Source: Candidatus Poribacteria bacterium (GTDB lineage Bacteria > Poribacteria > WGA-4E > PCPOR2b). Taken from it: DNA of 64,000 nucleotides. A program made the position numbers and the translations under genes. Shown here one piece after another: positions 6,519 to 42,441 of this stretch (its first letter is position 1; the number at the start of each line of letters is the position of its first letter). The DNA lies in contig OZ242351.1 of the NCBI GenBank assembly GCA_965208675.1, positions 64,001 to 128,000 of the forward strand, read 5' to 3'. The notes under the pieces are model-generated. The model was given only the letters and a program-made list of their open reading frames with translations, did not search any database and had not been told where the DNA came from.

Positions 6519-6520
6519 GC

Positions 6521-21069: not shown

Positions 21070-22215
21070 ATGCACACGACAGTCAATCATCAACCTACAC
21101 CAAAGCATGTTCTCATCAGCGTTGTCGGACTCTCACCGCAAGTAATCACGGAGACCCTCTACTACTACTGGTGCATCGCCTCGCCGCCTATTCCAATCGC
21201 CGAAGTATTTGCCTTGACTACACTGCGCGGCAAGCTGGCTTTGGAAGATACACTTCTCGGTGATAACGGAAAACTCAATGCTCTTTGCAGCGACTACAAT
21301 CTACCGCCAATTCGCTTCGATCTAGCGAATATTCATCTCCTCAAGGGTGCAGACGGACAGCCGCTAGCGGATATTTCGAGTGTGATTGACAACGAAGCCC
21401 TTGCAAATCAACTTTTCGCATTCATCCGAAAGTTGGCGGCTTCAACCGATATTTGTCTGCACGCTTCTATCGCGGGTGGACGCAAAACTATGGGGTTTTA
21501 TATCGGCTTGGCGATGCAATTTTACGGCAGACCGGGCGATAAACTTTCTCACGTCCTCGTGAATCCTGAACTTGAAAATCAGGAGTTTTTCTATCCGCCG
21601 CCAAACGGTGCCGATGTTGTTTTGAGCGATGGACGGATAATCCCTGCGGGCGAGATTCGACTTGAGTTGGCAGAAATCCCGCTCTTGCTACTTGGGGAGA
21701 AAATCCCTTTTATTGAGAAACATGTTGGTGCCGGCTACACGGAGTTAATCGAGATTGCTCAAAGGGAGTATGATGCGTTGCAAGCGATCGCCCCCGTCGT
21801 TGTTAACATATTTTCTCGTTGCTTAGAAATTGGAGACGTTACTATTAATCTCACACCCCTTGAACTCGCACTCTATCTGTTTTTTGCACGCCGACATATA
21901 GAAGAGGGAGGGGACCAAAGATATTCCATTTCACGTTCTGATATTCGAAGGGGACTTCTAACAAATGCACTTATAGAAATGGTCTCTCAAATTCCCGCGC
22001 GTGACTACCGCCTAGAGAGGTTGATAGGTTGGAAAAACGATTCAATTGCCCGCTTTTCGCAAACTCGATCGAATATCAACAGAAAAATTGGAGAAGGACT
22101 AGGTGAAGCCCACTCTACTCACTATCAAATCCAAGCTTGGAATCCTTTATCAAACCAAGACGAAATCTGTTATGGACTGACAATTGCCAAGGATCGTATC
22201 CATCTGCATTCATAA
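21070..22215 (+). CDS. CRISPR-associated CARF protein, NE0113/TIGR02584 type, with C-terminal wHTH-like region
   Basis: GLSPQVITETLY, HASIAGGRKTMG, DKLSHVLV..EFFYP; C-terminal LTPLELALY..SNINRKI; no RxxxxH HEPN motif recognised. Confidence 0.85.
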   Translation: MHTTVNHQPTPKHVLISVVGLSPQVITETLYYYWCIASPPIPIAEVFALTTLRGKLALEDTLLGDNGKLNALCSDYNLPPIRFDLANIHLLKGADGQPLADISSVIDNEALANQLFAFIRKLAASTDICLHASIAGGRKTMGFYIGLAMQFYGRPGDKLSHVLVNPELENQEFFYPPPNGADVVLSDGRIIPAGEIRLELAEIPLLLLGEKIPFIEKHVGAGYTELIEIAQREYDALQAIAPVVVNIFSRCLEIGDVTINLTPLELALYLFFARRHIEEGGDQRYSISRSDIRRGLLTNALIEMVSQIPARDYRLERLIGWKNDSIARFSQTRSNINRKIGEGLGEAHSTHYQIQAWNPLSNQDEICYGLTIAKDRIHLHS

Positions 22216-22308
22216 GGACATGTTCATGTTAAGAAATCATGCTATAGAAACCGAGTTTTTTCTTCAAAACTCGGTTTCTCTTCGTGCTCTTTTTCCAAGA
22301 ACCGTAGA

Positions 22309-22378
22309 ATAAAAACTGAGTTGCTACGATAAAAACTGAATTGTTAACCTTGAATGCTCGCAAAATGGGGCGTATATT
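22309..22378 (+). promoter_or_regulatory. Two direct repeats ATAAAAACTGA(G/A)TTG(C/T)TA, 20-bp period, immediately upstream of a TTGAAT-17-TATATT promoter for cas10
   Basis: Repeats at 22309 and 22329; -35 at 22350, -10 at 22373. Confidence 0.6.
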
Positions 22379-22413
22379 TTACGTCAAAATCTCGAAACTC
22401 TAAAGGTGACCAC

Positions 22414-25204
<2,791 letters not shown>

Positions 25205-25225
25205 ATGTAACGAAGGAGGACAGAC

Positions 25226-26035
25226 ATGGCAAGTATTCAACTTCAAGGGAAAATCTTTATCATAGGCGAAATTGAAACGACTACAGGGTTGCACATCGGC
25301 GGGAGTGCTGGCGAATTAGACATAGGGGGCGTCGATAACCCTGTCATCCGAAATCCGCTCACTCGTGAGCCGTATATCCCCGGTTCATCTCTGCGCGGCA
25401 AGATGCGGTCCCTGCTTGACCGACACCACAGCAGGGAATTAAATCAACCTATAAATCAAGTTCGTATTCATCAATGTAAAACACCTGATGCTTACAGAGG
25501 TTGTCCTATTTGTCCTGTGTTCGGTGTTGCGGCTGAGTTTAGCGGTTTACTCCCCACACGCCTGATTGTCCGCGACGCACTGCTTACGTCTGAAACGAGA
25601 GAACGGTTTGACGAAATAGATACCGACATGCCGTACACTGAGATCAAAACCGAAGTCGTAATCGACCGCATCACTTCCGCAGCAACGCCGCGCCAAAACG
25701 AGCGTGTGCCCGCAGAAGCAACGTTCGGTCCAATGGAGATGGTTCACAGCCTTTATTCCATAGACACCGATGCCGAGGGAAACCTTGACCGTGAAATCGC
25801 ACTTTTTGACACGGTATTGACGGGCATGGAACTGCTCGAAGATGACTACCTCGGCGGCTCCGGATCGCGCGGCTCCGGGAAAATTGCCTTCCGTGATTTG
25901 GAGATGACTTTCAAATCCCGCAAACATTACGAGGATTCGCGGTCAGTACCCATTACGCTTGCCGAAGGGGATGGAGTTGCAGCCTTACGGAATGTGGATT
26001 ACCAAAGCCAAATTTCAGAAGCAGTCCAAGCATAG
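25226..26035 (+). CDS. csm3: Csm3 backbone RNase
   Basis: TGLHIGG, IGGVDNPVIRNP (catalytic Asp), PYIPGSSLRGKMR, YLGGSGSRGSG. Confidence 0.95.
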   Translation: MASIQLQGKIFIIGEIETTTGLHIGGSAGELDIGGVDNPVIRNPLTREPYIPGSSLRGKMRSLLDRHHSRELNQPINQVRIHQCKTPDAYRGCPICPVFGVAAEFSGLLPTRLIVRDALLTSETRERFDEIDTDMPYTEIKTEVVIDRITSAATPRQNERVPAEATFGPMEMVHSLYSIDTDAEGNLDREIALFDTVLTGMELLEDDYLGGSGSRGSGKIAFRDLEMTFKSRKHYEDSRSVPITLAEGDGVAALRNVDYQSQISEAVQA

Positions 26036-26046
26036 GGAGGGGCTTC

Positions 26047-27033
26047 ATGTCAACACATGCCACCTACTATCTCAACTTCCGTTCCCCTCTCCATCTTGGG
26101 CGGCGCGGAGTTGGGTTGGAGGAAACCGGAATTTCAATCCCTGCTGACACCCTCTTTTCGGCAATTTGTCAAACGTGGCGGACGTTTTACGGGGAAGAGT
26201 CTCTCACCGCTTTTTTGGCTCAATACGAATCCGATGAACCGTTTCTGTTGACCTCCGCCTTTCCATTTGCGGGGGACACCAGATTCTTCCCCAAGCCGTT
26301 AATCGATCTTGATGTTAATGCGGACGATGACCGCAAAACACTCAAGAAAGTTCGTTATCTCTCCGAGAGTCGTTTTCGTCAAATTGTGGACGGTAAGTTG
26401 AGTGCGCCTCACCACGCTGACTCAATAACGGACAAAGACTTAATCAATGACGGGCAACTCTGGGTGCACGACGATGACAAGTGCCCGCGCGCGGTTTGGA
26501 AAACGGACAAAAGACCGCGCGTGACGCTTGACCGTCAATCGTCCGCATCGGAAATTTGGCACCTGAAAGCTGTCAAGTTCGAAGAAGAATGTGGGCTGTG
26601 GTTCGCTACAAAATTCGAGGCAGAGGAGATTCAATCGCAAATCGAAACGATTCTCCGTGTCCTCGGTGACACGGGCATCGGTGGTGAGCGGAGTGCGGGG
26701 TACGGCACCTTCGATTTCCATAGTAAAACTGCCGACATTGAACCAAACTCGGGATTGAATCGGTTTGTCACGCTTTCACCAATCTGTCCGCGAAATGCCG
26801 AAGAGTTGGAATGTCTCCTCCAAGGCAATGTCGGATATACGCTAGAGGAACGCTCCGGCTGGATCGGTTCTACTGAGGGGAATGGCCTGCGTCGTCGGCA
26901 GGTCTGGGCGTTTGCTGAAGGCTCCGTGTTAAGCGGGAATGGCGCGGGAGTTGGTCGTCTCGTTGACCTACAACCGGAGGCATGTCCGCATCCGGTCTGG
27001 CGGTACGCCTACGCTTGGCCCATAAAGATATAG
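26047..27033 (+). CDS. csm4: Csm4
   Basis: ADTLFSA, LTSAFPF, FFPKP, GIGGERSAGYG, FAEGSV, HPVWRY. Confidence 0.95.
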   Translation: MSTHATYYLNFRSPLHLGRRGVGLEETGISIPADTLFSAICQTWRTFYGEESLTAFLAQYESDEPFLLTSAFPFAGDTRFFPKPLIDLDVNADDDRKTLKKVRYLSESRFRQIVDGKLSAPHHADSITDKDLINDGQLWVHDDDKCPRAVWKTDKRPRVTLDRQSSASEIWHLKAVKFEEECGLWFATKFEAEEIQSQIETILRVLGDTGIGGERSAGYGTFDFHSKTADIEPNSGLNRFVTLSPICPRNAEELECLLQGNVGYTLEERSGWIGSTEGNGLRRRQVWAFAEGSVLSGNGAGVGRLVDLQPEACPHPVWRYAYAWPIKI

Positions 27034-27338
27034 AAAACGCAAGCGCTAACCCGACCTAATGTCCGTAAGTCGAGATTTATTTCTCGACACCAAATGTCTT
27101 TCGCTCCAGAGGAGCGATATGTCTATAGAAGGATGATACGTCCAATGCTCGCGCTCCAGCGGAGCGCAATTTACAGGATTCACGAGTTCAGTCAACCAAT
27201 GCGCGGACAAAATCATTGCAATATGAGACTTTACGTTTTCTATCCTGTAAATCCTTAAATCCTGAGCATCCTGATTCAGACAATATCATCATTTCAATCA
27301 GCCAATGGACTAATGAACCACTACAATTGGAGTGAATT
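27034..27338. repeat. REP-filled intergenic gap inside the csm operon (GTAAGTCGAG..CTCGAC; two CTCCAG(A/C)GGAGCG hairpins; AATCCTG units)
   Basis: Non-coding gap with several short palindromes. Confidence 0.55.
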
Positions 27339-28448
27339 ATGAAATACCAACTAAAAACCATCACGCCCGTCCATATCGGTACGGGAGAAACGTTAAGCCA
27401 AATTGACGGATTCTACGACAATGGAGGTTGGCATCGGATTGACATTGATGCGGTACTGGCAGCTATCCCTGAATCTGAACTAAATCGCCTCACCAATGCG
27501 ATGGGCGGTCGCGACTTTCAATGGGGGAGATACCTTCCAACGAATCAACCATCAGCGCGTTATTCGCTCACTTGCCCCGAAGACCCGCGGGAAACGGAAA
27601 TCCGTGAGGCGATTAAACACCCTTCAAACCGACCGATGATTCCCGGCAGCAGCATCAAAGGCGCGATTCGCACCGTATTGCTGTGGGATCTCATCGGTGA
27701 TAGTAATCAGGAATCCTTCAAGTATTCAGTCAACTATTTGAAAGAACAACTACAGCGGAAACCGAATCGGAGTTGGGTCGGACAAAAAATTGAACGCCGC
27801 GTGCTTGGCAAAGATCCGAACCACGACGTGATGCGAGTTGTGCAGATCAGCGATACCGCGCCAATTCCTATCGAAGCCCTAAAAATAAGCGTGGCGTGGA
27901 CCGTTACACTTAATCAAAAGGGTGAACTTATTCAGAAAATGGAAACTGGACGTGAGTACAAAACCTTTGTTGAACATATCCGCGCCGAGCAGACATTCGA
28001 CTTCTCAATCAAAATTGATAAATCTCTATTCGGTCAGCGAGAAAAACGCGAACTCGGATACAACGATCAGCAGGAGCAGGTGGTCTGTGGTGAACTCGCC
28101 GATGTGTGCAATTTCGTGGCGAAAGATCTTGCGGATGAGGAGGCAAAGTTCTACGGTTATTACAGCATGCCTGAACTTACTAATTTTTATGAATCACTCT
28201 CAAACCAATTCGAGAATTTACGAGATGGTGCATTTATCCTTCCAATTGGTTGGGGAACAGGGTATCGCGCTAAAACGGTCACCGAACTGTTGACCCAAGA
28301 TGACAATGATTTATTGGGGGATTTGCGGAGACACTACCGTCTGGGCAGAAGACACCATACTGAATTCCCGAAAACCCGTCGGATTTTGTATGACGGACAA
28401 AAACCAAAATCCCCGCTCGGCTGGGTACAAATCACACCCAAGGAGTAG
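27339..28448 (+). CDS. csm5: Csm5
   Basis: TITPVHIGTG, IPGSSIKGAIRT, IGWGTG, FPKTRR, PLGWV. Confidence 0.93.
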   Translation: MKYQLKTITPVHIGTGETLSQIDGFYDNGGWHRIDIDAVLAAIPESELNRLTNAMGGRDFQWGRYLPTNQPSARYSLTCPEDPRETEIREAIKHPSNRPMIPGSSIKGAIRTVLLWDLIGDSNQESFKYSVNYLKEQLQRKPNRSWVGQKIERRVLGKDPNHDVMRVVQISDTAPIPIEALKISVAWTVTLNQKGELIQKMETGREYKTFVEHIRAEQTFDFSIKIDKSLFGQREKRELGYNDQQEQVVCGELADVCNFVAKDLADEEAKFYGYYSMPELTNFYESLSNQFENLRDGAFILPIGWGTGYRAKTVTELLTQDDNDLLGDLRRHYRLGRRHHTEFPKTRRILYDGQKPKSPLGWVQITPKE

Positions 28449-28453
28449 ATGCC

Positions 28454-29698
28454 ATGAAAGCATTCACATTTCTCGGACGCGGCAAACTTTACGAAAGCAT
28501 TTACACCTACGATGAGCAATTTTGCAAAACTCGATTTTTTGCGGAAGCACTCGTCTCGTTTTTTGAGCCCGATACACTCGTTGTTCTCACCACAGATAAA
28601 GCGTCTCAAGAATCCGTATCCGAAACGGATAAAACCGATAGGCTCGCCGCCATTCAGAATCTATTAGACGGTAAAACGGAGGTTATCCCGGTAACAATTC
28701 CAGAGGGCGAAAGCGAAAATCAACTGTGGGAGATTTTCAACACAGTTGTCAGCGAAATCCAAGATGAGGACCGCGTGCTATTCGATATCACGCACGGCTT
28801 CCGATCGCTTCCATTTCTGACGTTTCTCGCGTTGGCATACGTGCGGAATGTCAAAAGAAACGTAGAGATTGAGCGAGTGGTCTACGGCGCGTATGAAGCG
28901 GTTGAACGAGATAATCCGTACAAACCTGTCTTTGACCTGACACCGTTTATCGGCTTATTGGATTGGATAGGAGCTGTCTCTGTGTTTCAGCAAACAGGTA
29001 ATGCACAAACCATCGCTAAACTTATAGCAGATGCGCAAAATCGGCCTTACCGGCTCCGCTTGTCAGGTGATTTACCTACCCGTTTGCAGAGTCTGGCACG
29101 CGGATTAAGCAATCTATCCGATGCACTTCTGACCAACCGCATCCTAGAGACACAAACCGCCGCCGCGAATTTGGCAACTCAACTTGATAAAGCGAAACCG
29201 GAGGTTGATGAGTGGGCGAAACCTTTTGATGTCCTACTGAATCAGATGCGGAGGACCTATCAACCGCTCGCACTTCAAAACCCGGAAACGCCAGAGAACC
29301 GGAGGGAAAGCTTGATTGGGCAGTATCACCAGATTAAATGGTATATACAGAATCAGCAGTATCTTCAAGCTATCACGCTTGCAAGGGAATGGCTAATTTC
29401 TTTTGGTTGTTATCAATTAAACAGGGATTGGATTCGCGAGCGGAGAAAGGTTGAAGAGATGATGGGAGAATGCGGGCGTGCAAAGCGCGAGAAACGCGCT
29501 TTACCAAATCTTCCAATAATTAATATAAAGCACGGCGTGAAATCTATTGAACTCTTTAATGACCTGCACAATCTCAGAAATGACCTGGCACACTGTGGTA
29601 TGCGTTCCAATCCAATATCTGCCAATCGAGCAATCATTCAGGTCGAAAAGATCGTTGAGAGGTTAAACGACCTCGTTCGCGACATTCAAAGTGCCTAA
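28454..29698 (+). CDS. csx1: Csx1/TM1812-type CARF-HEPN cOA-activated RNase
   Basis: FDITHGFRSLP (DxTHG), VYGAYEA, FDLTPF, HEPN RNDLAH. Confidence 0.9.
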   Translation: MKAFTFLGRGKLYESIYTYDEQFCKTRFFAEALVSFFEPDTLVVLTTDKASQESVSETDKTDRLAAIQNLLDGKTEVIPVTIPEGESENQLWEIFNTVVSEIQDEDRVLFDITHGFRSLPFLTFLALAYVRNVKRNVEIERVVYGAYEAVERDNPYKPVFDLTPFIGLLDWIGAVSVFQQTGNAQTIAKLIADAQNRPYRLRLSGDLPTRLQSLARGLSNLSDALLTNRILETQTAAANLATQLDKAKPEVDEWAKPFDVLLNQMRRTYQPLALQNPETPENRRESLIGQYHQIKWYIQNQQYLQAITLAREWLISFGCYQLNRDWIRERRKVEEMMGECGRAKREKRALPNLPIINIKHGVKSIELFNDLHNLRNDLAHCGMRSNPISANRAIIQVEKIVERLNDLVRDIQSA

Positions 29699-30259: not shown

Positions 30260-31027
30260 ATGCGAATCAAAATAACATGCGGCATCGGCAAGGGCATTGT
30301 CCTTCCGATTAACTACAACCACCTTCTTACAGGGGTTATCTATCAATTCCTCAAGGAATCCGATCCCGAATATGCCGATTTCCTCCACCATACCGGCTAT
30401 GAACTCGAGAATCGGCGTTTCAAACTGTTCACATTCTCCCAGCTAATGGCAAAACGGCGAGAAATCCGAGGCGATCGAATCCACTTCCGTTCACCGCTGA
30501 CGTGGTTCGTCTCCTCCTCCCAGGAGCCGTTTCTACAAAACTTCGCTGCCTCGCTGATGGGGACTGGAATCCTACGAATTGAGCGTCACAGCCTTCGCGT
30601 CCAAGATGTCGAGGCACTGCGTCAACCCCGCTTTGGACAGAAGATGGCTTTCCGATGCATTTCGCCGATTACAATGTCCACCAAACGCGAGCACGACGGC
30701 AAACTGGGCGCGCACTACTGCCTCCCCGATGACCCGCAGTTTTCCGACTTGGTTCGGCAGAACCTAATCCGGAAATTCGAAGCAGTGCACCAACGCCCGC
30801 CGACGGATAAATCGTTTGCGATGACCTTCGATCAGGCGTACATCGACAAACGGGAGGGACGCGTGACACGCTTAGTTGACTACAAAGGCATCAAAATTCG
30901 TGGTGTCGTCTCTCCCTTTCACGTCATCGGTGCACCCGAGTTAATCCGCGTCGGCTACGAATGCGGCTTTGGCGATAAAAATAGCGCGGGATTTGGGATG
31001 GTGGAGGTTTTAAGGCAAAAAGTGTGA
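30260..31027 (+). CDS. cas6: Cas6 endoribonuclease
   Basis: LPINYNH, FKLFTFS, GYECGFGDKNSAGFG. Confidence 0.95.
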   Translation: MRIKITCGIGKGIVLPINYNHLLTGVIYQFLKESDPEYADFLHHTGYELENRRFKLFTFSQLMAKRREIRGDRIHFRSPLTWFVSSSQEPFLQNFAASLMGTGILRIERHSLRVQDVEALRQPRFGQKMAFRCISPITMSTKREHDGKLGAHYCLPDDPQFSDLVRQNLIRKFEAVHQRPPTDKSFAMTFDQAYIDKREGRVTRLVDYKGIKIRGVVSPFHVIGAPELIRVGYECGFGDKNSAGFGMVEVLRQKV

Positions 31028-31097
31028 AATATATGTTGACTTAATATGTGCGGAGAGATTTGATTATGATTCAGTTTTCGCTGAAGGAAGGATACGA

Positions 31098-32480
31098 ATG
31101 GCAATATATGAAAAACTGATGGGCAATCCATTTGTTGATGCGGGGGTGAGTGCGATTTGTGCGTGGCTGGGACCAGGTACTCAACCAGAAGAGATCTCAA
31201 CCGAAGATTTGCAAATTCTGATAAATCAATTTGCTCCAATTTATTGTACCCCTGAATGGATTAAGAATCTCTATTCAATTTTTCCAAACAGTCCTGTTAC
31301 CTATACTGCGCGTGGAAGCAACGATAGCGTAACAAAACTTGTATCTAAATGGTCGAACTGGTGCAAGAAAATCGCGCCAATGAGTAAAACAGGTGATTGC
31401 CTTGGATGTGGACGCCGAGTGACAATGGAGAAATTACTTACAAAAACTGATGTGCCCTTAACCGGTTCGGGCAGCCTACGAAATTTCTTTCCGTTGTTTA
31501 GTGATGGGCAAGGGTATTGTGCCGCTTGTGCCTTGGCGGTTCAGTTTGTGCCGCTTTCCTTGGTTTCTAGTGGCGGTAAATTCCTTATGTTGCACTCAAA
31601 CGGTTGGCGGGTTCAAAGGAAGTGGTCGCAGATTTGCGTTTCCGATATTCAAAGTCGTGCTGCGCGAAATGAAATTACTGGCTGTTTCAGCCCGGGATAC
31701 ATCAATCCGCGTAACGGTCTATTTTACATGGCGAGACAATTGATTGATTATGAGGAACGTCGTGCTACCGAAAATATAACGATGCAAATTTTCTATTTTT
31801 CCAACTACAATCAAGGTCCAGAGCTTGAAATCTTTCATCTGCCAGCGCCGGTCTTCCGCTTCCTACGTTACGCTTACCAGACCGAATTTCGCCGGCCATG
31901 GCAACGAATCGTCCGAAGCGGATATCGGTATGTCAAATGGGACAAAGTTGAATCAGAGGAGGATTACAAAAACAAGATTAATCTCATTTACGAATTTTTG
32001 TTGCAAGGGCGATCCATCCTCCGATTTTTCATCAATAAACCTACTCGGAAGGCACGCAGTAACTGGGAATTACTTTCTCTTTACCTAAAGGAGGTTCGCA
32101 ACATGGATGAATCAAGACTTAACGCCATAAAGCAAGTTGGAGACTCGATCGCCGAAAGTATTCGTAAATCCGAACGTGACCGACGGCTCCGACAACTAGA
32201 ATCCGCCGCGAGTTATGGGCAATGTCGAAACGTCCTGCGGTTCGTGATTCGAGACCGTATTCAGCAAGGTGAGGAAAAACCACTCTTTTCGCTGGATGAC
32301 TACATTGAACATCTGTTTCCGGCATCGGCGGATCAGACGACATTTTGGCGGGAGACTCGTGACCTACTCGTTTTTCGGATTTATGAAACACTTCACGATT
32401 GGTTAGTTGCAAGTGGGTTTGCTGATGATACGGACGACCAATCTGAACAATCAACAGATGAATCACAGGAGGAAAATTAA
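31098..32480 (+). CDS. cas8b1: Type I-B large subunit Cas8b1/Cst1 (CxxC-CxxC)
   Basis: GNPFVDAG, CLGC..PLTGS..NFF..CAAC, FSNYNQGP. Confidence 0.85.
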   Translation: MAIYEKLMGNPFVDAGVSAICAWLGPGTQPEEISTEDLQILINQFAPIYCTPEWIKNLYSIFPNSPVTYTARGSNDSVTKLVSKWSNWCKKIAPMSKTGDCLGCGRRVTMEKLLTKTDVPLTGSGSLRNFFPLFSDGQGYCAACALAVQFVPLSLVSSGGKFLMLHSNGWRVQRKWSQICVSDIQSRAARNEITGCFSPGYINPRNGLFYMARQLIDYEERRATENITMQIFYFSNYNQGPELEIFHLPAPVFRFLRYAYQTEFRRPWQRIVRSGYRYVKWDKVESEEDYKNKINLIYEFLLQGRSILRFFINKPTRKARSNWELLSLYLKEVRNMDESRLNAIKQVGDSIAESIRKSERDRRLRQLESAASYGQCRNVLRFVIRDRIQQGEEKPLFSLDDYIEHLFPASADQTTFWRETRDLLVFRIYETLHDWLVASGFADDTDDQSEQSTDESQEEN

Positions 32481-32482
32481 TC

Positions 32483-33472
32483 ATGTCGAAGCATGTTATA
32501 GGTTTGGTACTGATCGATGCACCGCACTCCGCACTCAATAACGCAGGAACTGAGCCATCCCAAGCAACAGAAAACATCGTGGTGGTCAAAACGCTGCGCA
32601 AAGGGAATCAAACGTATCCGTACGTATCGGGACAAGCGTGGCGAAATTGGTGGCGCACGACATTAGACCAAGAATTTAATTGGAAAATTTCGCCGATTGA
32701 ACGTGACAAGAAAATTGCCTTTACCGCCGCTGATCCTATTGCTTACGATGACGATGATGTTTTTGGTTACATGCGAGCGGTGAAGAAAGAGACTTTGACT
32801 CGGCTCTCACCGTTGAAAACCTCACCGCTAATTGCGATTGAACCCCAACGTCCCACGGACGACTTTGGTGTGATGGCACGTCACAAGGGCGATCCAGTCC
32901 CCTACGAGCATCAGTTTTACTCATGCCCACTTAAGGGCATCTTTTCCCTTGACCTTGATGCTGTAGGTGCTTTGTGGAACGTTGATAAAACCGGATATAA
33001 AAACATCACTGATACACACATTCCGGATATTGAAGCGATTGGCGGTTTGCAGGTAGACGAAAAATCTCCATGGGTCCTACCGCAAGACATCCGCCAACGG
33101 CGTTGCCGCGAAACACTCGAGGCACTCCCACTACTCAGTGGCGGCGCGAAGTTGACCTCACATTTGACCGACGTGACGCCTAAACTTATCATTCTATCTG
33201 TTCTCAATGGCGGTAATCATCCCTTCATGAATGTGATGGTTGAACAGGATGGACAGGGTAAGTTAAGTATTCCGGCGCTACGGCAGGTTATCGCCGATTA
33301 TGAGAGTCGTTTCCTAGATTCAATTTTTATCGGTCGCCGTGAAGGGTTTATGGATGCATTAGATGAACCATTGCGCCAATTGGCAGAAGATGAAGCCGTG
33401 ATATACGATTCACCTAATCAGGTCATTGCACAACTAGTCGGTGGACTTTCAAAATACTTCGGGGTGGAATGA
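32483..33472 (+). CDS. cas7: Type I-B Cas7/Cst2/DevR
   Basis: SALNN, YPYVSGQAWR, DDDVFGYMRA, RLSPLK, GGAK..HLTDVTP. Confidence 0.92.
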   Translation: MSKHVIGLVLIDAPHSALNNAGTEPSQATENIVVVKTLRKGNQTYPYVSGQAWRNWWRTTLDQEFNWKISPIERDKKIAFTAADPIAYDDDDVFGYMRAVKKETLTRLSPLKTSPLIAIEPQRPTDDFGVMARHKGDPVPYEHQFYSCPLKGIFSLDLDAVGALWNVDKTGYKNITDTHIPDIEAIGGLQVDEKSPWVLPQDIRQRRCRETLEALPLLSGGAKLTSHLTDVTPKLIILSVLNGGNHPFMNVMVEQDGQGKLSIPALRQVIADYESRFLDSIFIGRREGFMDALDEPLRQLAEDEAVIYDSPNQVIAQLVGGLSKYFGVE

Positions 33473-34098
33473 TGAAAGTTCTTCGTGTCCTCATCAACGG
33501 CTGGGTGGCATCATTTCGGAATCCGCTATTCATCAGCGGATTCCAACCCACTCTTCCTCTACCGCCACTTTCGACGCTCTACGGCTTGCTATCGGCGGCG
33601 CGAGGCGATTGGGTAACACCTGACGATGCAGCAGTTGGATTTATCTTTCAAAGCCAAGGTAAATTCGTAGACCTGGAAACGGTGTACGAGTTCGATCAGA
33701 CCCGACTTAAGGCAAAACCAAACGTCTGTAAACGTGAATTTCTCGTGTCACCTGAGCTTTATCTCTACACGCCTGCGCTGTGGCTGAGACCCCATCTTGA
33801 ACTCCCTCATTATCCATTGCTGCTGGGGCGTTCGACGGAATTAGCAACGGTTGCGTCGATTGTTGAAATTGAGTTAGAGAAGGTATCCGAAACCAAATAT
33901 CGAGATACACTTCTACCATTTCCAAATGAACAGATTTACGGTCAGATACAGGCGCTGCCAACTCATTTTACACAGGAACGTCCACGTAGTCCGCAAGGCA
34001 TCCGCCCCTTCTACATGCTGACGGACAAAATTTCGTACAGCGGTCCCGCATTACAAGATCCGGAAATGGGTTGGGGAGTGCATTTGCACGGAAATTGA
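33469..34098 (+). CDS. cas5: Type I-B Cas5
   Basis: ASFRNP..QPTLPLPPLSTLYGL, LLLGRS. Confidence 0.92.
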   Translation: MMKVLRVLINGWVASFRNPLFISGFQPTLPLPPLSTLYGLLSAARGDWVTPDDAAVGFIFQSQGKFVDLETVYEFDQTRLKAKPNVCKREFLVSPELYLYTPALWLRPHLELPHYPLLLGRSTELATVASIVEIELEKVSETKYRDTLLPFPNEQIYGQIQALPTHFTQERPRSPQGIRPFYMLTDKISYSGPALQDPEMGWGVHLHGN

Positions 34099-34105
34099 GT
34101 AAATT

Positions 34106-36334
34106 ATGACAGAACTACTTGCCAAAAGCGCCCCGCCTGAAACACTGATGAAACACACGGAAAACTGTCTTTCAGTCTGTTTCAGTATGCGGGAAACAAT
34201 GCCGTTTCTCGCGGAGATTTCCGGCGATCCGGATTTTTTCGACCATCTTTTCTATACGGTTGCCCTTCACGATTTCGGCAAGGCAGCAGCCGGGTTTCAG
34301 GAACAACTCAAACCAGCTGCCGCCCCGTGGAACTATCGTCACGAAATTTTATCGGCAGGATTTGTGGCTGGGTTGAATCTGCCGTTGCGAATCAAACAAG
34401 CAATCGGTTTGGCAATTCTGACTCACCACAAAGATATTAAAATATTAAGAGATCGTTATCCATGCTTCCCCCCACACAATCCAGGTTATGCAACATGGAA
34501 ATCACGAATGGCAGAATTAGAACCGAATTGGGATGCCTTGATGCGAATTCAAGAGCAGATCGATCTCTGGCGTCCAGACGAGAATTGTCACTTTATACCT
34601 CTGCCCTCGCTTGGTGGATTAATTAACGGGTATAAGGATTTCCTTGTGCCATATCTTAACGATTTTGAGGACGGCGAATTGACGGCGTTGCATGGTCGTT
34701 ACGGTATGTTGTTGCGCGGTTGTATGATTGCGTGTGACCATCTCGCATCAGCAGGAAAAACTAAGATTTACCGTGCGCTTGACAATCTGGATGGGCATCT
34801 TCGCATCCAAATTGAGCAAAAGGGGCGGGTGTTTCGAGGTTGGGATGCATTTCAAGATGCCGCCGCAACGACATCGGGGCACCTATTGCTCTCCGCGCCA
34901 ACTGGTTCGGGCAAGACCGAAGCCGCTATGCTTTGGTCCGATGCAAATGAGAGCGAATCGCATGGACAGCGTGTATTTTATGTTTTGCCCTACACCGCAA
35001 GCATCAATGCGATGTATGACCGCCTGCTCAATCTCGTGTCCAAAGACCGCATCGGATTGTTGCACGGCAAGGCAAATTACTTCCTCTATAGGTCAATGGT
35101 GGATAAAGAATACACCCCAGACGAAGCGAGAGCAGAAACCCGGGAAACGCAAAACCTGACACAAAAAATCTACCGGCCGTACAAAGTATTGACACCGTTC
35201 CAACTGCTCAAATCCTTTTTCGGTACGCGCGGCTTTGAGATGCAATTCGCGGAGATGGCGGGTGGCTTGTTCATCTTCGACGAAATCCACGCCTATGACC
35301 CGCATACTACCGCACTCATTTTGACAATGGTTAAGAAACTTTGTCAAGATTACGGCTCGCAATTCTGCATTATGACTGCAACAATGCCGAAGTTCCTCAA
35401 GGAGATGTTTGTAGATGCTACCGGTGAGACTGCTAAAGTTGAGATGTCTCCTGAGAAACGAGATCAATTCACACGCCACCACGTTCGCTTGTTTGAAGGT
35501 GGAATCATTGACTCAATTCCAAAGATTACCGAACGATTGGAAGGTGGGAAACGGGTATTGGTTGTTTGTAATACAGTCAAAAAGGCACAGACAGTTTTTG
35601 AGCGATTATCCCCACGTGCGACCAATCCGCAGCTTCTCCACAGTCGTTTTATCCTCCGAGACCGAGAGCGAATCGAGAGAGAGCTGGCAGATGCGGACTT
35701 GCTTGTTGGGACACAAGCCGTTGAAGTCTCACTTGACATTGACTTTGATGTGCTGTTTACCGAGCCCGCACCAATTGATGCCCTGATACAGCGATTCGGA
35801 CGGGTAAACCGTAGAGGCGAAAAAGAAATTTGTGATGTGTGCATCTGTCGCGAAGGTGGTGATAACGACAAATACATCTACTCCATAGACCGTATAAAAC
35901 GGACGCTTGATGCTTTCGCCGAAGTTAATATTTTGTATGAATCGAAAGTTCAATATCTGATTAATACGGTTTACGGCGAGAGCTACGATTCAAAGGAACA
36001 GGAAATGTTTGATAACGCTAGAGCGATTTTCAATCAACACGTGCGAAACATCGTTCCGTTCATTGAGGACACATCAGCGCACGAGGAGTTTACCGGCCTC
36101 TTCAAAAGCATAGAAGTAGTTCCATCAGTTTATGAAGATGAATTTCTGATACATATCAACGCAAAGCAGTTTTACGAGGCAATGGCGTACGTCACCTCAA
36201 TTTCTGATGGACAATTCGCGCGACTCCACAAAGAAGGTCAGTTATACAAACAACAGGGGCAATGGTTCGTGCGAGTCCGCTACGATTCTGAGCGTGGGTT
36301 GGCACTTGATGAGTTGGCGGAAAATGTGTTGTGA
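34106..36334 (+). CDS. cas3: Cas3 HD nuclease-helicase
   Basis: LHDFGKA, APTGSGKT, DEIH, MTAT, QRFGRVNR. Confidence 0.96.
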   Translation: MTELLAKSAPPETLMKHTENCLSVCFSMRETMPFLAEISGDPDFFDHLFYTVALHDFGKAAAGFQEQLKPAAAPWNYRHEILSAGFVAGLNLPLRIKQAIGLAILTHHKDIKILRDRYPCFPPHNPGYATWKSRMAELEPNWDALMRIQEQIDLWRPDENCHFIPLPSLGGLINGYKDFLVPYLNDFEDGELTALHGRYGMLLRGCMIACDHLASAGKTKIYRALDNLDGHLRIQIEQKGRVFRGWDAFQDAAATTSGHLLLSAPTGSGKTEAAMLWSDANESESHGQRVFYVLPYTASINAMYDRLLNLVSKDRIGLLHGKANYFLYRSMVDKEYTPDEARAETRETQNLTQKIYRPYKVLTPFQLLKSFFGTRGFEMQFAEMAGGLFIFDEIHAYDPHTTALILTMVKKLCQDYGSQFCIMTATMPKFLKEMFVDATGETAKVEMSPEKRDQFTRHHVRLFEGGIIDSIPKITERLEGGKRVLVVCNTVKKAQTVFERLSPRATNPQLLHSRFILRDRERIERELADADLLVGTQAVEVSLDIDFDVLFTEPAPIDALIQRFGRVNRRGEKEICDVCICREGGDNDKYIYSIDRIKRTLDAFAEVNILYESKVQYLINTVYGESYDSKEQEMFDNARAIFNQHVRNIVPFIEDTSAHEEFTGLFKSIEVVPSVYEDEFLIHINAKQFYEAMAYVTSISDGQFARLHKEGQLYKQQGQWFVRVRYDSERGLALDELAENVL

Positions 36335-36371
36335 TTAGGGCGTTTTGACCTCTGTACAGCCATCTACAATC

Positions 36372-36470
36372 GTAGAGGCGAGGTTACCTCGCCCGGTGGT
36401 TTTGAAATACCCAACCGCTACGAAAAATCACACCTCTATCAAGTCCCCCTGACAAGGGGGATTTAGGGGG
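36372..36470. repeat. REP-like hairpins (GTAGAGGCGAGGTTACCTCGCCC; CCCCCTGACAAGGGGGATTTAGGGGG); relatives at ~8741, ~8807, ~38148
   Basis: Palindromes in the cas3-cas4 gap. Confidence 0.65.
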
Positions 36471-36533
36471 TTAAATTTAAAATCCGCCATAGTAATATCA
36501 ATAAGCAGTCTAACTGACTAAAAGGATGTATCA

Positions 36534-37043
36534 ATGCAAAACCCAAATGAACCCCGTATCACCGGCACAACAATCGGCTACCTCTACGTCTGTCCGCGCG
36601 AACTCTGGTTCTTTCAGAACCATATCGAAATGGAACACACCTCAGACCTCGTTTCTATGGGGAAACTCCTACACGAGGAGAGTTATCCTCGTGAAAAACG
36701 GAAGGAACGCCCGATTGATGATCGCAACCTCATTGACTTCATTGACAAAGACGGCATCCTGCACGACGTAAAGTCAAGTCCATCAGTGCAGAAGGCTCAT
36801 GAAATGCAAATCCTCTACTATCTCTATCTCCTCAAACAGAAAGGGTTGCCAAATCGGAAAGGGGTGATTAACTACCCGCGCCAACGGCGGACCGTTGAGG
36901 TCGAGTTGACCCCTGAGAAAGAGTGCGAAGTCGAGGAAGCGATCGGAGAGGTCAAGAGAATATCCGACCTGCCTACACCTCCAGATGTGGAGTTCATGAA
37001 TATCTGTAAATCGTGTAGCTATATGGAATTGTGTTGGAGTTGA
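36534..37043 (+). CDS. cas4: Cas4
   Basis: CPRELW, GKLLHE, IDFID, QILYYL, CKSCSYMELC. Confidence 0.95.
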   Translation: MQNPNEPRITGTTIGYLYVCPRELWFFQNHIEMEHTSDLVSMGKLLHEESYPREKRKERPIDDRNLIDFIDKDGILHDVKSSPSVQKAHEMQILYYLYLLKQKGLPNRKGVINYPRQRRTVEVELTPEKECEVEEAIGEVKRISDLPTPPDVEFMNICKSCSYMELCWS

Positions 37044-37134
37044 ACGCCACTAAAAACCGAGTTTTTTCTTCAAAACTCGGTTTCTCTTTGCATCTTGTAC
37101 TTTATTTTTATAGGAGTTTAGGAGAACAACAACC

Positions 37135-38130
37135 ATGTCTCGTAACTACTACATTAGCCAGTCAGGCAGATTGCGCCGAAAAGACAACACCATCTATCTC
37201 GAAAAAGAAGACGGGTCCCGGGTGCCGATTCCGATTGAAGATGTGGATGCATTCTACCTCTATGGCGAACTGGACATGAACACCCGCATTCTCAACTTCA
37301 TGGCGCAGAAGCATGTACCTATTCATGTGTTCAACTACTACGGCTACTATTCCGGCACGTACTATCCGCGGGAATACCTGAACTCTGGATTCCTCACCGT
37401 CAAGCAGGTGCAGCACTACGAACGAAAATCGAAACGTCTGCCAATTGCCCGCGAATTTGTTTCAGCGGCAGTGGCGAATATCCTGCGAAACCTCCGTTAC
37501 CGTGCGAATCGCGACAGCGATTGTTCCGAGCAACTGAGCATTATTGAATCCATCGAAGCCGAGATTCCGCACGCGCAGACTGTTGACCAACTGATGGGAT
37601 ATGAGGGAAACGTCCGCGAAACCTACTACCGCGCCTTCAACGCCATTATCAATCTACAAACTCCTTTTGACAAACGTGTCCGCCAACCGCCCGATAACCC
37701 CATCAACGCCACGATCTCATTCGGAAATTCGCTAATGTATACCGCCTGCCTGACAGAGATCTACCGAACGCAGCTGAATCCGACGATTAGTTTCCTGCAT
37801 CAACCGGGGGAACGCCGATTCTCCCTGAGCCTCGATCTGGCAGAAATCTTCAAACCGATAATTGTTGACCGAGTGCTATTCCGATTGTTCAATCGAGGGC
37901 AACTCAAAGAATCCAAGCACTTTGAAACCGAGACTGGAGGCTGCTATCTAAACGAGAGCGGAAGGCGCCTATTTCTCCAAGCCTTCGACGAACAGCTCAA
38001 GCAGACAATCGACCATCGGAAATTAAATCGGAAAGTCTCCTACCAACGTTTGATCCGCCTTGAATGCTACAAGTTGATTAAGCATCTTACAGGAATGGAG
38101 ACCTATCAGGCATTTCGGGCATGGTGGTAG
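37135..38130 (+). CDS. cas1: Cas1 (type I-B)
   Basis: GRLRRKDNT, FNYYGYY, LMGYEG, PPDNPINA, SLSLDLAEIFKP. Confidence 0.97.
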   Translation: MSRNYYISQSGRLRRKDNTIYLEKEDGSRVPIPIEDVDAFYLYGELDMNTRILNFMAQKHVPIHVFNYYGYYSGTYYPREYLNSGFLTVKQVQHYERKSKRLPIAREFVSAAVANILRNLRYRANRDSDCSEQLSIIESIEAEIPHAQTVDQLMGYEGNVRETYYRAFNAIINLQTPFDKRVRQPPDNPINATISFGNSLMYTACLTEIYRTQLNPTISFLHQPGERRFSLSLDLAEIFKPIIVDRVLFRLFNRGQLKESKHFETETGGCYLNESGRRLFLQAFDEQLKQTIDHRKLNRKVSYQRLIRLECYKLIKHLTGMETYQAFRAWW

Positions 38131-38236
38131 GACGAGAAAATCCCTTCGTAGGGGCGGGGTTCCCCCGCCCGTAGAATTTGGGGGCAACCGTAGGTAGGGC
38201 TTCCTAGCCCGACTGAATCAATAAACCGTAGTTTTT

Positions 38237-38271
38237 TTACGCATTACTCATTACTCATTACGCATTTTACA
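38237..38271 (+). repeat. Heptamer tandem repeat TTAC(G/T)CA, about 5 copies
   Basis: ttacgca ttactca ttactca ttacgca ttttaca. Confidence 0.6.
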
Positions 38272-38332
38272 TACTATACTTTCTTTTTCAATTCACCTCA
38301 TTTATCCATTACTAGCGTAGGAGACCGCCACA

Positions 38333-38596
38333 TTGTATGTCATTATCGTTTACGACATTGACGTAAAGCGGGTTGCGAAAGTCTGCAAATACCTGCGTCA
38401 ACACCTCAACTGGGTACAAAACTCCGTCTTTGAAGGCGAACTGACAAAGGCTCAATATGCACGAGTGGAATCAGGACTTTTGGGAATCATTGATGAAAAT
38501 CAAGATTCGGTGCTCGTTTACCAAATGCGTAATGAGAAATGGATGGACAAGCAGGTTATCGGCATCGAAAAAAATCCGGTCACAAATCTCCTATGA
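38333..38596 (+). CDS. cas2: Cas2
   Basis: YVIIVYDI, WVQNSVFEG; TTG start after AGGAG. Confidence 0.95.
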   Translation: MYVIIVYDIDVKRVAKVCKYLRQHLNWVQNSVFEGELTKAQYARVESGLLGIIDENQDSVLVYQMRNEKWMDKQVIGIEKNPVTNLL

Positions 38597-38876
38597 CCGA
38601 ACACTACAGCAAAAGTAGTAGGCATACGCCGTATGCCGTAAAGAGTGTTTCTGAATGGATCGTATGTCGTCAACCCCAGTTTCTGCGGCAATTTTCCTAA
38701 TTCATAAAGCACCATTTTTTCCCGACTATTTTGGATTTGAATCGCAACCACGTGATGTCGTCAACCCCCCGTCTGTTTTGCACAATCGAACGTTGACGAC
38801 TTTTGAGAGCACGGAGAATTTACTCTTTGCAGTCGTGGCGCGGGTTTGCTTTGTTATTTTTCGCCGATTTTGCGGA
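38597..38876 (+). promoter_or_regulatory. CRISPR leader with GTCGTCAACCCC motif (38666, 38757) and inverted GTTGACGAC (38792)
   Basis: Lies between cas2 and the first repeat; the degenerate repeat is at the opposite end. Confidence 0.7.
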
Positions 38877-41800
38877 CTTCTAATCGAACCATACTGGAAT
38901 TGAAACGTAAGCTCCTCTTCGGTTCGGTAAGGTTAGGAAAAACTTCTAATCGAACCATACTGGAATTGAAACATTTCCCTTTACTTTTAGCCGAGAGTAT
39001 AGTAGCCTACTTCTAATCGAACCATACTGGAATTGAAACGTTAATCTCTATAATCTCGCCGTATACCTTATTTCCCTTCTAATCGAACCATACTGGAATT
39101 GAAACATTTCCCTTTACTTTTAGCCGAGAGTATAGTAGCCTATCTTCTAATCGAACCATACTGGAATTGAAACTTTACTATCGGCCCTATTCCTAGAGTT
39201 ATATCGTAAGACTTCTAATCGAACCATACTGGAATTGAAACACGTATACGATTACTCCTACTCGTACGGCGAATATACTTCTAATCGAACCATACTGGAA
39301 TTGAAACAGCGACGGCGTTTCGATTTCGCCGTTCTCGTATAACTTCTAATCGAACCATACTGGAATTGAAACTATTCCGTAACGACGGTATAAGTTACCT
39401 CGCCGACTTCTAATCGAACCATACTGGAATTGAAACTTAGTAGACGGCGCGCCCCGTTCGAGTTCTAAGGTTTCCTTCTAATCGAACCATACTGGAATTG
39501 AAACTCGGTTAATTCCTTTTCGGTTAGAGGTTAGGAAACGCCTTCTAATCGAACCATACTGGAATTGAAACTTAAGATTCTTACCGCCATCGGATTTTAG
39601 GTTATTCTTCTAATCGAACCATACTGGAATTGAAACGTATAACCTTATAAACTATATCCCCGTTTTCCGTCCTTCTTCTAATCGAACCATACTGGAATTG
39701 AAACACGCTCCGCCGATATAACCGCCGTAACTATAACTATCTTCTAATCGAACCATACTGGAATTGAAACTATGAAGAGTGGGGAGACGACTGAGATGTT
39801 TAGGAAACTTCTAATCGAACCATACTGGAATTGAAACGATATAACCTCTCTATAAGTTTAACGTTACCGCTATCCTTCTAATCGAACCATACTGGAATTG
39901 AAACTCGGGTGCTCTATCATATAATCCTTTAATCTCTAATCTTCTAATCGAACCATACTGGAATTGAAACATTATTTTACCGATGAAATAACCTTAGATT
40001 CCTATATACTTCTAATCGAACCATACTGGAATTGAAACGGTTTAGGAAAGTTAGAACACAGTAGCACGGGTTTACCTTCTAATCGAACCATACTGGAATT
40101 GAAACTTATTAACCGCTTCGCGTATTCCGTTATCGAATAGACTTCTAATCGAACCATACTGGAATTGAAACACATCCGTTTGTATGGCTAAAGCGAAACG
40201 ATTTTAGCCTTCTAATCGAACCATACTGGAATTGAAACACGCCATTTGCTCATGTGCCGTCTGAATCTTCTTAACCTTCTAATCGAACCATACTGGAATT
40301 GAAACTCCTCTGAGACTAAAGCTCTTGAGACAGCAAACGCCGTCTTCTAATCGAACCATACTGGAATTGAAACAGAGACGTTGCAACCGCTTTCGTTAAA
40401 TCCATTCTGACTTCTAATCGAACCATACTGGAATTGAAACCTTTACAAGGCGGGAATTGTAACAGTGGACGATGTTCTTCTAATCGAACCATACTGGAAT
40501 TGAAACGCAACAAAGCTCTTTTCCATTCCGCAGATTTCATATTCTTCTAATCGAACCATACTGGAATTGAAACTAGAATTATTAAGCAATTCTGGATTAT
40601 CAGATTTATCCTTCTAATCGAACCATACTGGAATTGAAACCCAGCTTTGACTGCGTTATTTGCTGCTCTCAACTTCACTTCTAATCGAACCATACTGGAA
40701 TTGAAACCTTGGATGCGTAAACTATTGATGGCTTCGCTTTTCTTCTAATCGAACCATACTGGAATTGAAACTCATTTCGCCGCGTGCTAGTTGAAAACAC
40801 TCGTCTAAACTTCTAATCGAACCATACTGGAATTGAAACAGATACTTCATTGTGTTACCTCCTTAAAAAAGAGAGCTTCTAATCGAACCATACTGGAATT
40901 GAAACAACTACCGGTGCTGCGCCCACAAGGCTCTCTTTCGCTTCTAATCGAACCATACTGGAATTGAAACAACGAAATTATACATCTTCCAATTGCGCTC
41001 GATATAATCTTCTAATCGAACCATACTGGAATTGAAACGGTGCTTACGACGAGGCGGAGCAGCGGCGCGTCAGCCTTCTAATCGAACCATACTGGAATTG
41101 AAACAGATCTGCGTGTACTGTGACTGTCGCCTTCATCGTAATCTTCTAATCGAACCATACTGGAATTGAAACCAGGCTCCTTAGCAGCTCTTGGATTTGC
41201 GCTTGGACTTCTAATCGAACCATACTGGAATTGAAACCCACCTTATTGCCAGTTGTTTCAATCGCCTCCTTAACACTTCTAATCGAACCATACTGGAATT
41301 GAAACTTTTGTGGTGCGGTTAGAACTGTCCGAGCCAGATGCCTTCTAATCGAACCATACTGGAATTGAAACAGGCTTTCGCCTCGTCTAGTAAATCGTTG
41401 CGTTGTTCCTTCTAATCGAACCATACTGGAATTGAAACCAGGTTGTCAAGCGTTTTTCCGAATTATTTTGCTATCCTTCTAATCGAACCATACTGGAATT
41501 GAAACAAAGTTGCGGGCGTTTGTCTTGGCGCGTCTCGACTTGCTTCTAATCGAACCATACTGGAATTGAAACTAAGCTATTAACATCGCCGTCTGCGATA
41601 TAATCGTGCCTTCTAATCGAACCATACTGGAATTGAAACAGGCTTTCGCCTCGTCTAGTAAATCGTTGCGTTGTTCCTTCTAATCGAACCATACTGGAAT
41701 TGAAACAAAGTTGCGGGCGTTTGTCTTGGCGCGTCTCGACTTGCTTCTAATCGAACCATACTGGAATTGAAACTAATGTGTGCGCTCAAGGTGTAACAGA

Positions 41801-42041
41801 ATTTTTACTTCTAATCGAACCATACTGGAATTGAAACATTCCTTCGGATAGATTTCATACGCGACGCCGGCAAACTTCTAATCGAACCATACTGGAATTG
41901 AAACTTGGCAACCAGCCTTCAGGATATTTGAAAAGCACCATCCTTCTAATCGAACCATACTGGAATTGAAACATTAGCATTACGAATGTGGAAGGAGGTA
42001 GACGGTCGTCCCTTTTAATCGAACCTTACGTTGAATTTCGG
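38877..42041 (+). CRISPR. CRISPR array: 47 perfect 30-bp repeats CTTCTAATCGAACCATACTGGAATTGAAAC plus a degenerate terminal repeat at 42012; 47 spacers of about 34-39 nt
   Basis: Counted manually; 3' ATTGAAAC handle typical of I-B/III systems. Confidence 0.99.
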
Positions 42042-42226: not shown

Positions 42227-42441
42227 TGTTAAATCTGTTAAATTTTGTAAACTTTTGTAAACCATTTTGCTGCTACTATCCTCGAAAATTCAACGGCGGG
42301 CAGTAAAGAAACCCCATTGCTGTTAATGGTTAGTAACGACAAATACGGGGATTTTACTTTGACAAAATACGTACCCTCAATGTATAATTGCACCCAAAGC
42401 AAAACATGTTAAATCTGTTAAATTTTGTAAACTTTTGTAAA
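42227..42441 (+). promoter_or_regulatory. TTGACA-18-TATAAT promoter (42359-42388) flanked by two identical 35-bp boxes TGTTAAATCTGTTAAATTTTGTAAACTTTTGTAAA
   Basis: Boxes at 42227-42261 and 42407-42441. Confidence 0.8.

Follow-up and report, generated by a model that had tools for sequence, protein, structure and literature searches.

Near-absence of CA and TG dinucleotides from the newest spacers of a type I-B CRISPR array in a Candidatus Poribacteria genome

The window analysed here is a stretch of 64,000 nucleotides (nt) from a Candidatus Poribacteria bacterium (assembly GCA_965208675.1, contig OZ242351.1, positions 64,001 to 128,000 of the forward strand), and the element in question is its CRISPR array, which lies beside a type I-B cas operon. 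In the newest spacers both CA and TG dinucleotides are nearly missing: 14 of the 19 leader-proximal spacers contain neither, as against none of the 27 older ones. This depletion is real, far beyond chance, extreme and unexplained, and it lies in the DNA that was captured. To our knowledge a near-total absence of CA/TG is the composition of no phage, plasmid or bacterium, and the literature searched, at the level of abstracts, describes neither prokaryotic DNA free of CA/TG nor spacers of this kind. As its cause we tentatively put first a conversion of C to T at CpA similar to the repeat-induced point mutation (RIP) of fungi.

CA/TG content of the array

The array and its flanks comprise the following features:
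38877..41972, + strand: CRISPR array, in which 46 spacers of 34-38 nt alternate with 47 identical repeats of 30 nt
38907..40141, + strand: the 19 newest, leader-proximal spacers with their repeats, 14 of these spacers with zero CA/TG
41973..42041, + strand: a 47th, oldest spacer, then a degenerate terminal repeat (at about 42012-42041, approximate limits), as read from the sequence
38597..38876, + strand: presumed leader, from cas2 to the first repeat, so named from its position

Spacer 1 is taken as the newest because the low-coordinate end carries cas2 and the presumed leader, and the opposite end the degenerate repeat. Spacers 2 and 4 stem from one protospacer captured twice, with a length difference of 1 nt, and the depleted spacers defined below therefore number 16 unique ones. 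Among the older spacers, 38 equals 42 and 40 equals 43, lengths included (positions 41372-41743 of the window), which probably reflects rearrangement or duplication inside the array and not re-acquisition.

The sums of CA and TG in spacers 1 to 19 are 0, 0, 0, 0, 0, 0, 0, 0, 0, 0, 1, 0, 0, 4, 0, 2, 1, 3 and 0. An earlier examination of the letters of this stretch (hereafter the sequence-only reading) had given the same counts and the same position for the block, and both were reproduced, as was the sharp switch along the array, which falls at spacer 19. It had also reported 2-6 CA/TG for the older spacers that it counted; all 27 do carry CA/TG, but the range is 2-7 (mean 4.26). The depleted set as used here consists of 17 spacers (1-13, 15, 16, 17 and 19; 621 nt), including spacers 16 and 17 with 2 and 1 CA/TG, respectively; spacers 14 and 18 are normal. 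Four CA/TG are observed in this set, against about 72 predicted by its base composition.

The symmetrised odds ratios (rho) of CA/TG, CG and TA are 0.06, 2.12 and 1.62 in the depleted spacers, 0.96, 1.37 and 0.72 in the older spacers, and 1.03, 1.22 and 0.66 in the remainder of the window. The four lowest 500-nt segments of the entire genome all lie within the array (CA/TG 0.40-0.62, compared with a mean of 1.03 and a standard deviation of 0.11), in agreement with the earlier statement that the host DNA has no such bias. Zero CA/TG was found in 12 of 2563 control spacers from 119 public-genome loci with the same repeat core and in 1 of 354 spacers from seven arrays in genomes of the same order; the binomial probability of 14 such spacers among 19 is 2.8e-29. 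Runs of CA/TG-free spacers occur in none of the control or related arrays.

Three trivial origins are excluded by these data. Mutation within the array is excluded because CA and TG are intact in the interleaved repeats: all 47 copies are unchanged, also between depleted spacers. A general habit of the adaptation machinery is excluded because the older spacers and the 2563 control spacers are normal. Assembly error is excluded because contigs of run X1, built from reads, span spacers 4, 6, 11, 13 and 17 with zero differences. X1 is the only public run that contained at least one twentieth of the sampled words, comprises 4.29 million contigs and is possibly the source sample. An artefact of sequencing, assembly or binning in the wider sense could be suspected from the metagenome-derived look of the genome and from the size of the sole public run that holds the array, and the agreement with X1 might be that of one sample with itself; base-calling error could not, however, hit the spacers alone and leave CA/TG normal in all 47 interleaved repeats, and we consider such an artefact hardly credible.

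Spacer 14 (39771-39807) contains four TG and no CA, and spacer 18 (40039-40075) three CA and no TG. This one-sidedness resembles single-strand deamination that was not followed by a further round of replication, which is only a hint; one-sided CA or TG is also seen in about 5 of the 25 unique older spacers and weakens it.

Nature of the captured DNA and possible causes

The depleted DNA looks protein-coding and appears to be read on the minus strand. The plus strand is pyrimidine-rich in 16 of the 17 depleted spacers (binomial 1.4e-4), the best frame lies on the minus strand in 12 of the 16 unique ones, and only 3 of 500 dinucleotide shuffles beat the minus-strand value of a coding score that had been trained with the codons of host genes. 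The phase of the CG steps has a 3-periodicity that is matched by 7 of 1000 shuffles, and the TA steps have none (365 of 1000). The four reverse-complement peptides listed in the sequence-only reading, LYENGEIETPS among them, were obtained again. The leader's position implies a CRISPR RNA that corresponds to the plus strand; if this holds, the guides would be antisense to the putative mRNAs, which would suit the type III-A module described below.

One sequence is present in diverged copies as spacers 1 and 10. The 8-mer TTAGGAAA occurs in spacers 1, 10, 14 and 18, in the same orientation throughout, and in no older spacer. The normal spacers 14 and 18 probably come from the same invader family as the depleted ones, and because they share TTAGGAAA with spacers 1 and 10 this family would supply normal DNA as well.

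The approximately 171 predicted codons of the depleted spacers include not a single Met, His, Gln, Cys or Trp codon. All codons of these five amino acids, and the ATG, GTG and TTG starts, contain CA or TG, and in ordinary proteins the five make up roughly 11% of the codons. Because they and the starts need CA/TG, a viable genome cannot be wholly free of these steps. The sequence-only reading had inferred a phage or mobile element lineage with genome-wide CpA/TpG purging; the assignment of the bias to captured foreign DNA stands, since host, repeats, older spacers and control spacers are all normal, and the total purge of a viable genome is disfavoured.

Two readings concern the question of whether the DNA was ordinary before capture. 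According to the first, an acquisition or survival filter acts on an ordinary invader, so that only rare CA/TG-free stretches become or stay spacers, for instance owing to a bulky modification of CA/TG that hinders integration or the binding of Cascade, or to a nuclease that cuts the invader at these steps. Pyrimidine-purine (Y-R) steps, counted per 35 dinucleotides, bear on it. The depleted spacers have 8.41, the old spacers 8.56 and random host segments 8.61, and unselected DNA ranges from 8.1 to 8.9; because the count is normal, CA/TG has been replaced by TA or CG and not skipped. CA/TG-free stretches picked from ordinary DNA have fewer Y-R steps, namely 6.87 in the host (6.60 if GC-matched), 6.35 in pooled metagenome and viral loci, 5.93 in lambda and 6.29 in the first 50 kb of T4, and with each of these four sources a mean of 16 reaches 8.41 with P <= 5e-5. 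The pool is also small: before any requirement for a protospacer-adjacent motif (PAM), lambda (48.5 kb) offers 15 non-overlapping CA/TG-free stretches and 50 kb of T4 offers 42, and yet the captured spacers include 16 different ones.

A single control goes the other way: the 74 real spacers of other arrays that carry no more than one CA/TG average 8.08, and with them a mean of 8.41 for 16 spacers is reached with P=0.22. This higher value is probably due to a mixture of extreme-GC invaders. A filter would also account for the double capture seen in spacers 2 and 4, which is expected from a small pool, and for part of the composition, as selection alone raises rho in CA/TG-free host 36-mers (15192 of 4892003 start positions) to 1.89 for CG and 1.22 for TA, from 1.22 and 0.66 genome-wide. 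As to modified DNA, glucosylated phage DNA impairs binding by type I and type II effectors according to PMC5778469, and in phage iggy (PMC10484667) the modified base dPreQ0 within the protospacer did not stop Cas9, only modification of the PAM having this effect. The acquisition bias that the sequence-only reading had named as the alternative to its own inference is thus opposed by the test with four sources and compatible with the mixed real-spacer control. On balance the filter on an ordinary invader is disfavoured, and we regard it as improbable.

According to the second reading, the source DNA itself was depleted, and two accounts of it compete. The one placed first, as possible but tentative, is a RIP-like change of C to T at CpA, affecting both strands of a mobile element otherwise composed like the usual invaders of the host. 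The source would be foreign DNA of protein-coding look whose CpA/TpG steps had almost all been replaced before capture, mostly by TpA and partly by CpG, and the likeliest cause would be a context-specific C-to-T transition at CpA that ran to completion on both strands. The element would have replicated after the conversion, a step required because both CA and TG are gone, and its mutated copies would then have been sampled repeatedly by the type I-B adaptation module. The depletion, its foreign origin, the normal Y-R count and the coding-like signals are observed; the C-to-T direction, the view of the copies as defective or hypermutated instead of a viable lineage, and the origin of the enzyme are inferred.

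A depletion that is almost absolute and extends to codons which a living genome needs counts in favour of conversion at CpA, as do the coding-like signals that are still present. Conversion is also favoured because the bookkeeping of TA, CG and GC in depleted versus older spacers fits it. Per 35 dinucleotides the old spacers have 2.35 CG, 1.92 TA and about 4.3 CA/TG at a GC content of 0.45-0.46; the depleted spacers have 3.12 CG and 5.05 TA at 0.40; and random host segments in which CA and TG are converted to TA have 2.59 CG and 6.02 TA at 0.37. Relative to the older spacers this is a gain of about 3.1 TA and 0.8 CG per spacer, with GC falling from about 0.46 to 0.40. A CA/TG ratio of 0.06, a TA ratio of 1.62, an unchanged Y-R count and a lowered GC content together form the signature that a RIP-like process would leave. 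In the predicted frames Tyr accounts for 12 of 171 codons, ATA for 9 of 16 Ile codons, CTA for 7 of 11, GTA for 8 of 14 and NCG for 11 of 27, about the host level. Such a rise of Tyr, ATA and NTA is what a conversion of His and Cys to Tyr, of Met and Thr to Ile and of NTG to NTA would predict, and what a synonymous purge would not. A likelihood statistic for converted coding DNA versus synonymously recoded DNA amounts to +11.0, which exceeds all 300 recoded simulations (maximum -6.2) and lies inside the range of the converted ones (minimum 6.2).

Several points weigh against the conversion. The value of +11.0 lies 3 standard deviations below the mean of the converted simulations (38.5, standard deviation 9.2), and the statistic largely reflects the TA richness that is already known. 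Predicted frames underlie the codon counts, and Tyr, ATA and NTA codons arise in any TA-rich sequence. CG is somewhat above and TA somewhat below the prediction of pure C-to-T change, and the TA contexts do not discriminate between the models (log-likelihoods within about 2.5 units), nor do the tetranucleotide contexts of TA and CG. Conversion of Gln and Trp codons should create stops at a frequency of about 5% per codon (5.1% according to the converted table), to be judged in stretches of only about 12 codons: an open minus-strand frame is present in 15 of the 16 depleted spacers (11-12 codons each, which both models allow), and the otherwise good frames of spacers 2, 12 and 17 carry one TAA or TAG each. 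The 15-17 acquisitions, interleaved with others, suggest a persistent replicating source, which a viable lineage fits at least equally well. The host has no obvious enzyme: it carries two C5-methyltransferase genes of unassigned specificity, and four toxin-type deaminase families were unmatched in it, the DddA-like search among these having matched no control genome and being uninformative. Two genes for deaminases of the CDA fold are present, ordinary-looking, with open frames of 166 and 456 amino acids. We know of no prokaryote with a RIP-like process, and none is described in the literature searched at the level of abstracts. Without the source sequence, all evidence is indirect.

The account ranked second, in essence that of the sequence-only reading and given a lower though still appreciable chance, is a viable phage or plasmid lineage purged of all avoidable CA/TG by selection or long-term mutation pressure, such as a CA/TG-directed nuclease or modification, possibly with capture between residual sites. 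A source that is itself depleted at a normal Y-R count agrees with it; the coding-like signals with their uniform strand orientation suggest real transcribed genes, and the repeated acquisitions interleaved with other spacers a persistent replicon; normal spacers 14 and 18 that share TTAGGAAA with 1 and 10 would fit a mosaic genome. Near-saturating modification of a dinucleotide exists in phages, as PMC10484667 describes for iggy (dPreQ0 at GA, at least 97% of sites). The absence of Met, His, Gln, Cys and Trp from the predicted codons speaks against this account, as a coding genome cannot drop them or the usual starts, and the three or four residual CA/TG appear, as the predicted frames are read, at synonymous positions. 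A synonymous purge should moreover raise CG about as much as TA, but the excess of TA is some four times that of CG, and NCG codons are not raised.

Restriction by the host is not indicated either, because the host hardly avoids the two sites concerned: TGCA has a ratio of 1.01 (not avoided) and CATG of 0.83 (barely avoided), beside a CA/TG ratio of 1.03. A cyanobacterial host was rejected, as the HIP1 motif is not enriched (81 observed, 70 expected). In an unlikely variant of the living lineage, a dinucleotide-directed nuclease or modification would keep it essentially CA/TG-free, the few unavoidable sites would be cut, and only CA/TG-free fragments would enter the array.

Eukaryotic DNA altered by RIP in the strict sense, in the form of environmental relics of fungal repeats that were taken up, has the fitting composition (CA/TG lost, TA up, GC down), and the diverged copies in spacers 1 and 10 recall that RIP acts on repeats. 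No fungal or eukaryotic match was found, however, apart from chance matches with normal CA/TG (below); it is implausible that 17 of 19 consecutive spacers should come from rare relics of another kingdom, and the uniform strand orientation better fits a co-directionally transcribed prokaryotic element. This origin is very improbable. The models thus rank with RIP-like conversion first, the viable purged lineage second and the filter third.

Source searches, locus layout and neighbouring genes

Matching of the spacers to viral and metagenomic contigs, as proposed in the sequence-only reading, revealed no protospacer or source contig. Spacers 1-19 had no blastn match among 50,697 phage records and one among 72,556 plasmid records, a Fulvitalea plasmid at 70% identity that was read as repeat-like. 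In IMG/VR, spacer 2 in exact form, spacer 3 with Y/R letters and spacer 7 in back-translation gave 0 matches each, as did 30 nt of spacer 5 in JGI metagenomes and back-translated spacer 7 in contigs of GTDB genomes. The motif common to spacers 1 and 10 matched 2 loci in IMG/VR with normal CA/TG (1.00 and 1.09) and 46 loci in JGI metagenomes with a CA ratio of 0.82-1.22, which were read as chance. The JGI contigs L052 and L053 are chance short-motif matches as well, with normal CA/TG (0.82-0.90); they carry TTAGG-like, telomere-like tandem repeats and are probably eukaryotic.

Four of the 16 unique spacers (6, 7, 9 and 13), searched with the 60-nt stretches around them against 28 genomes of the family, produced weak matches only, some of them in other arrays. 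A 19-nt match in a glycosyltransferase-like gene (genome G020) could not be extended, also not when transitions were allowed. The order-wide search with the whole spacer block was dominated by matches of the repeats and is not readable for the spacers. Run X1, compared with the array, yielded pieces of the array, and no protospacer was seen among the 8 of 68 pieces listed.

Nor was an unmutated progenitor, as expected under RIP-like conversion, found in the host genome even with Y-R relaxation. With any Y-R step accepted for TA or CG, self-derived spacers reached at best 26-30 of 34-38 positions, against 25-29 in reversed controls, and were rejected; the idea that the depleted spacers are converted versions of the targets of older spacers was rejected too, no relation being seen apart from a marginal one at k=9 (22 of 400). 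The older, normal spacers matched no phage, and plasmids only by chance or in repeat-like fashion. Because they match nothing either, the negative results say little about the depleted spacers specifically; public collections do not cover the mobilome of this organism, and a missing progenitor is weak evidence.

As representatives of types I-B and III-A the array and its cas genes are unremarkable. All eight cas genes of the I-B operon, which lies beside the array, match NCBIfam models above the curated cut-offs, and the III-A module gave profile matches to Cas10 palm2, Csm1_B, HD, Csm4_C, RAMPs and Csm5. The genes are as follows:
30260..38596, + strand: type I-B cas operon
30260-31027, + strand: cas6
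31098-32480, + strand: cas8b1
32483-33472, + strand: cas7
33469-34098, + strand: cas5
34106-36334, + strand: cas3
36534-37043, + strand: cas4
37135-38130, + strand: cas1b (457.6 bits, cut-off 304.1)
38333-38596, + strand: cas2
21070..29698, + strand: type III-A (Csm) module
21070-22215, + strand: Cas_NE0113-family protein
22354-24759, + strand: cas10/csm1
25226-26035, + strand: RAMP protein
26047-27033, + strand: csm4
27339-28448, + strand: csm5
28454-29698, + strand: TM1812-family protein

A genome-wide scan of the single-contig 4.89 Mb genome found 47 forward matches of the repeat, zero matches elsewhere and a single array cluster. Because no other array was found in the genome, the III-A module, which has none of its own, presumably uses the array adjacent to the I-B operon. 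The repeat core was also found in arrays of metagenome-assembled genomes titled Poribacteria, Acidobacteriota (Blastocatellia, Pyrinomonadaceae), Bacteroidota, Armatimonadota and others (loci L065-L183), and so this I-B repeat family crosses phyla. Candidatus Poribacteria records make up 29 of the 80 repeat-core matches listed. The host may be a sponge symbiont.

In run X1 the bin 38568-38701, which covers part of the presumed leader, has a summed depth of 1631, compared with about 15-24 for pieces of the array, and loose ends are located at 38611/38612 and 38642; a short palindromic element in the presumed leader seems to be highly repeated in this sample. On the 3' side of the array a direct repeat of about 33 nt containing gttaaatctgttaaattttgtaaacttttgtaaa occurs twice (at about 42229-42262 and 42409-42440), directly followed by a helix-turn-helix/transposase-like open reading frame at 42457-43008.

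Farther from the array, the minus strand carries a cluster for a Pup-proteasome system at 3406-10701, which is unusual outside the Actinobacteria and a few other phyla:
3406-4866 and 7188-8831, - strand: two genes of the Pup-ligase family
4886-6518, - strand: two proteasome subunit genes
8911-10701, - strand: proteasomal AAA ATPase

Two adjacent paralogous GAF-SpoIIE (PP2C phosphatase) genes are located at 45215-47014 and 47708-49519; next comes a Cache-domain histidine kinase (49604-51841).

Significance and comparison with known systems

The 580 nt of spacers are a precise and cheap handle on their source, and unusual invaders that never turn up in assemblies can be recognised by the dinucleotide content of spacers. 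If hypermutation at CpA is true, this would be the first record of RIP- or APOBEC-like editing of mobile DNA in a bacterial community, with CRISPR adaptation feeding on the debris of hypermutated DNA. If instead the invader lives without CA/TG, a dinucleotide-specific force would have reshaped its codon and amino-acid usage, and in a lineage cut at CA/TG this force would be restriction-like with a specificity of 2 bp, the proteome being nearly free of Met, His, Gln, Cys and Trp over long stretches.

The composition of the captured DNA appears to work like RIP or APOBEC-type hypermutation, by analogy and without established membership in either. In ascomycetes RIP converts CpA to TpA on both strands, nearly to completion, and leaves DNA with CA/TG lost, an excess of TA, a lower GC content and a high CG ratio; the spacers are alike, with CA/TG at 0.06, TA at 1.62, CG at 2.12 and the Y-R count unchanged. 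RIP is known only from fungi, where it affects duplicated DNA in the sexual cycle and requires methyltransferases of the RID/Dim-2 type. The present DNA differs from its products in that a GC content of 0.40 is not extreme and the DNA is still coding-like. The hypermutation of retroviral DNA by APOBEC3, a defence by deamination of cytosines, is similar in its fixed dinucleotide context and in the defective mutated copies of an invader. APOBEC3 is, however, eukaryotic and acts on single-stranded DNA, on one strand, in the context of the 5' neighbour and with partial conversion, whereas here both strands are affected almost completely in the context of the 3' neighbour, and no extra deaminase was found in the host.

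Depletion of CpG in vertebrates reaches about 0.2, compared with 0.06 for CA/TG here. It results from deamination of 5-methylcytosine, a context-dependent C-to-T decay that shifts dinucleotide frequencies (for example PMC7140373); the context is another one, and CA/TG rise there and fall here. The nearest phenomena in prokaryotes are restriction-site avoidance and dinucleotide hypermodification, which differ in kind or degree. In restriction-site avoidance by phages a short word is depleted symmetrically on both strands, as PMC6286503 has it; the known cases concern 4-8 bp, are partial and leave coding intact, unlike the 2-bp word here, whose loss costs five amino acids and the usual starts. 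Hypermodification of the iggy type interferes with restriction enzymes and, at the PAM, with Cas9 (PMC10484667) and leaves the sequence unchanged, so that it could explain the present spacers only by way of the spacer filter that the Y-R steps disfavour.

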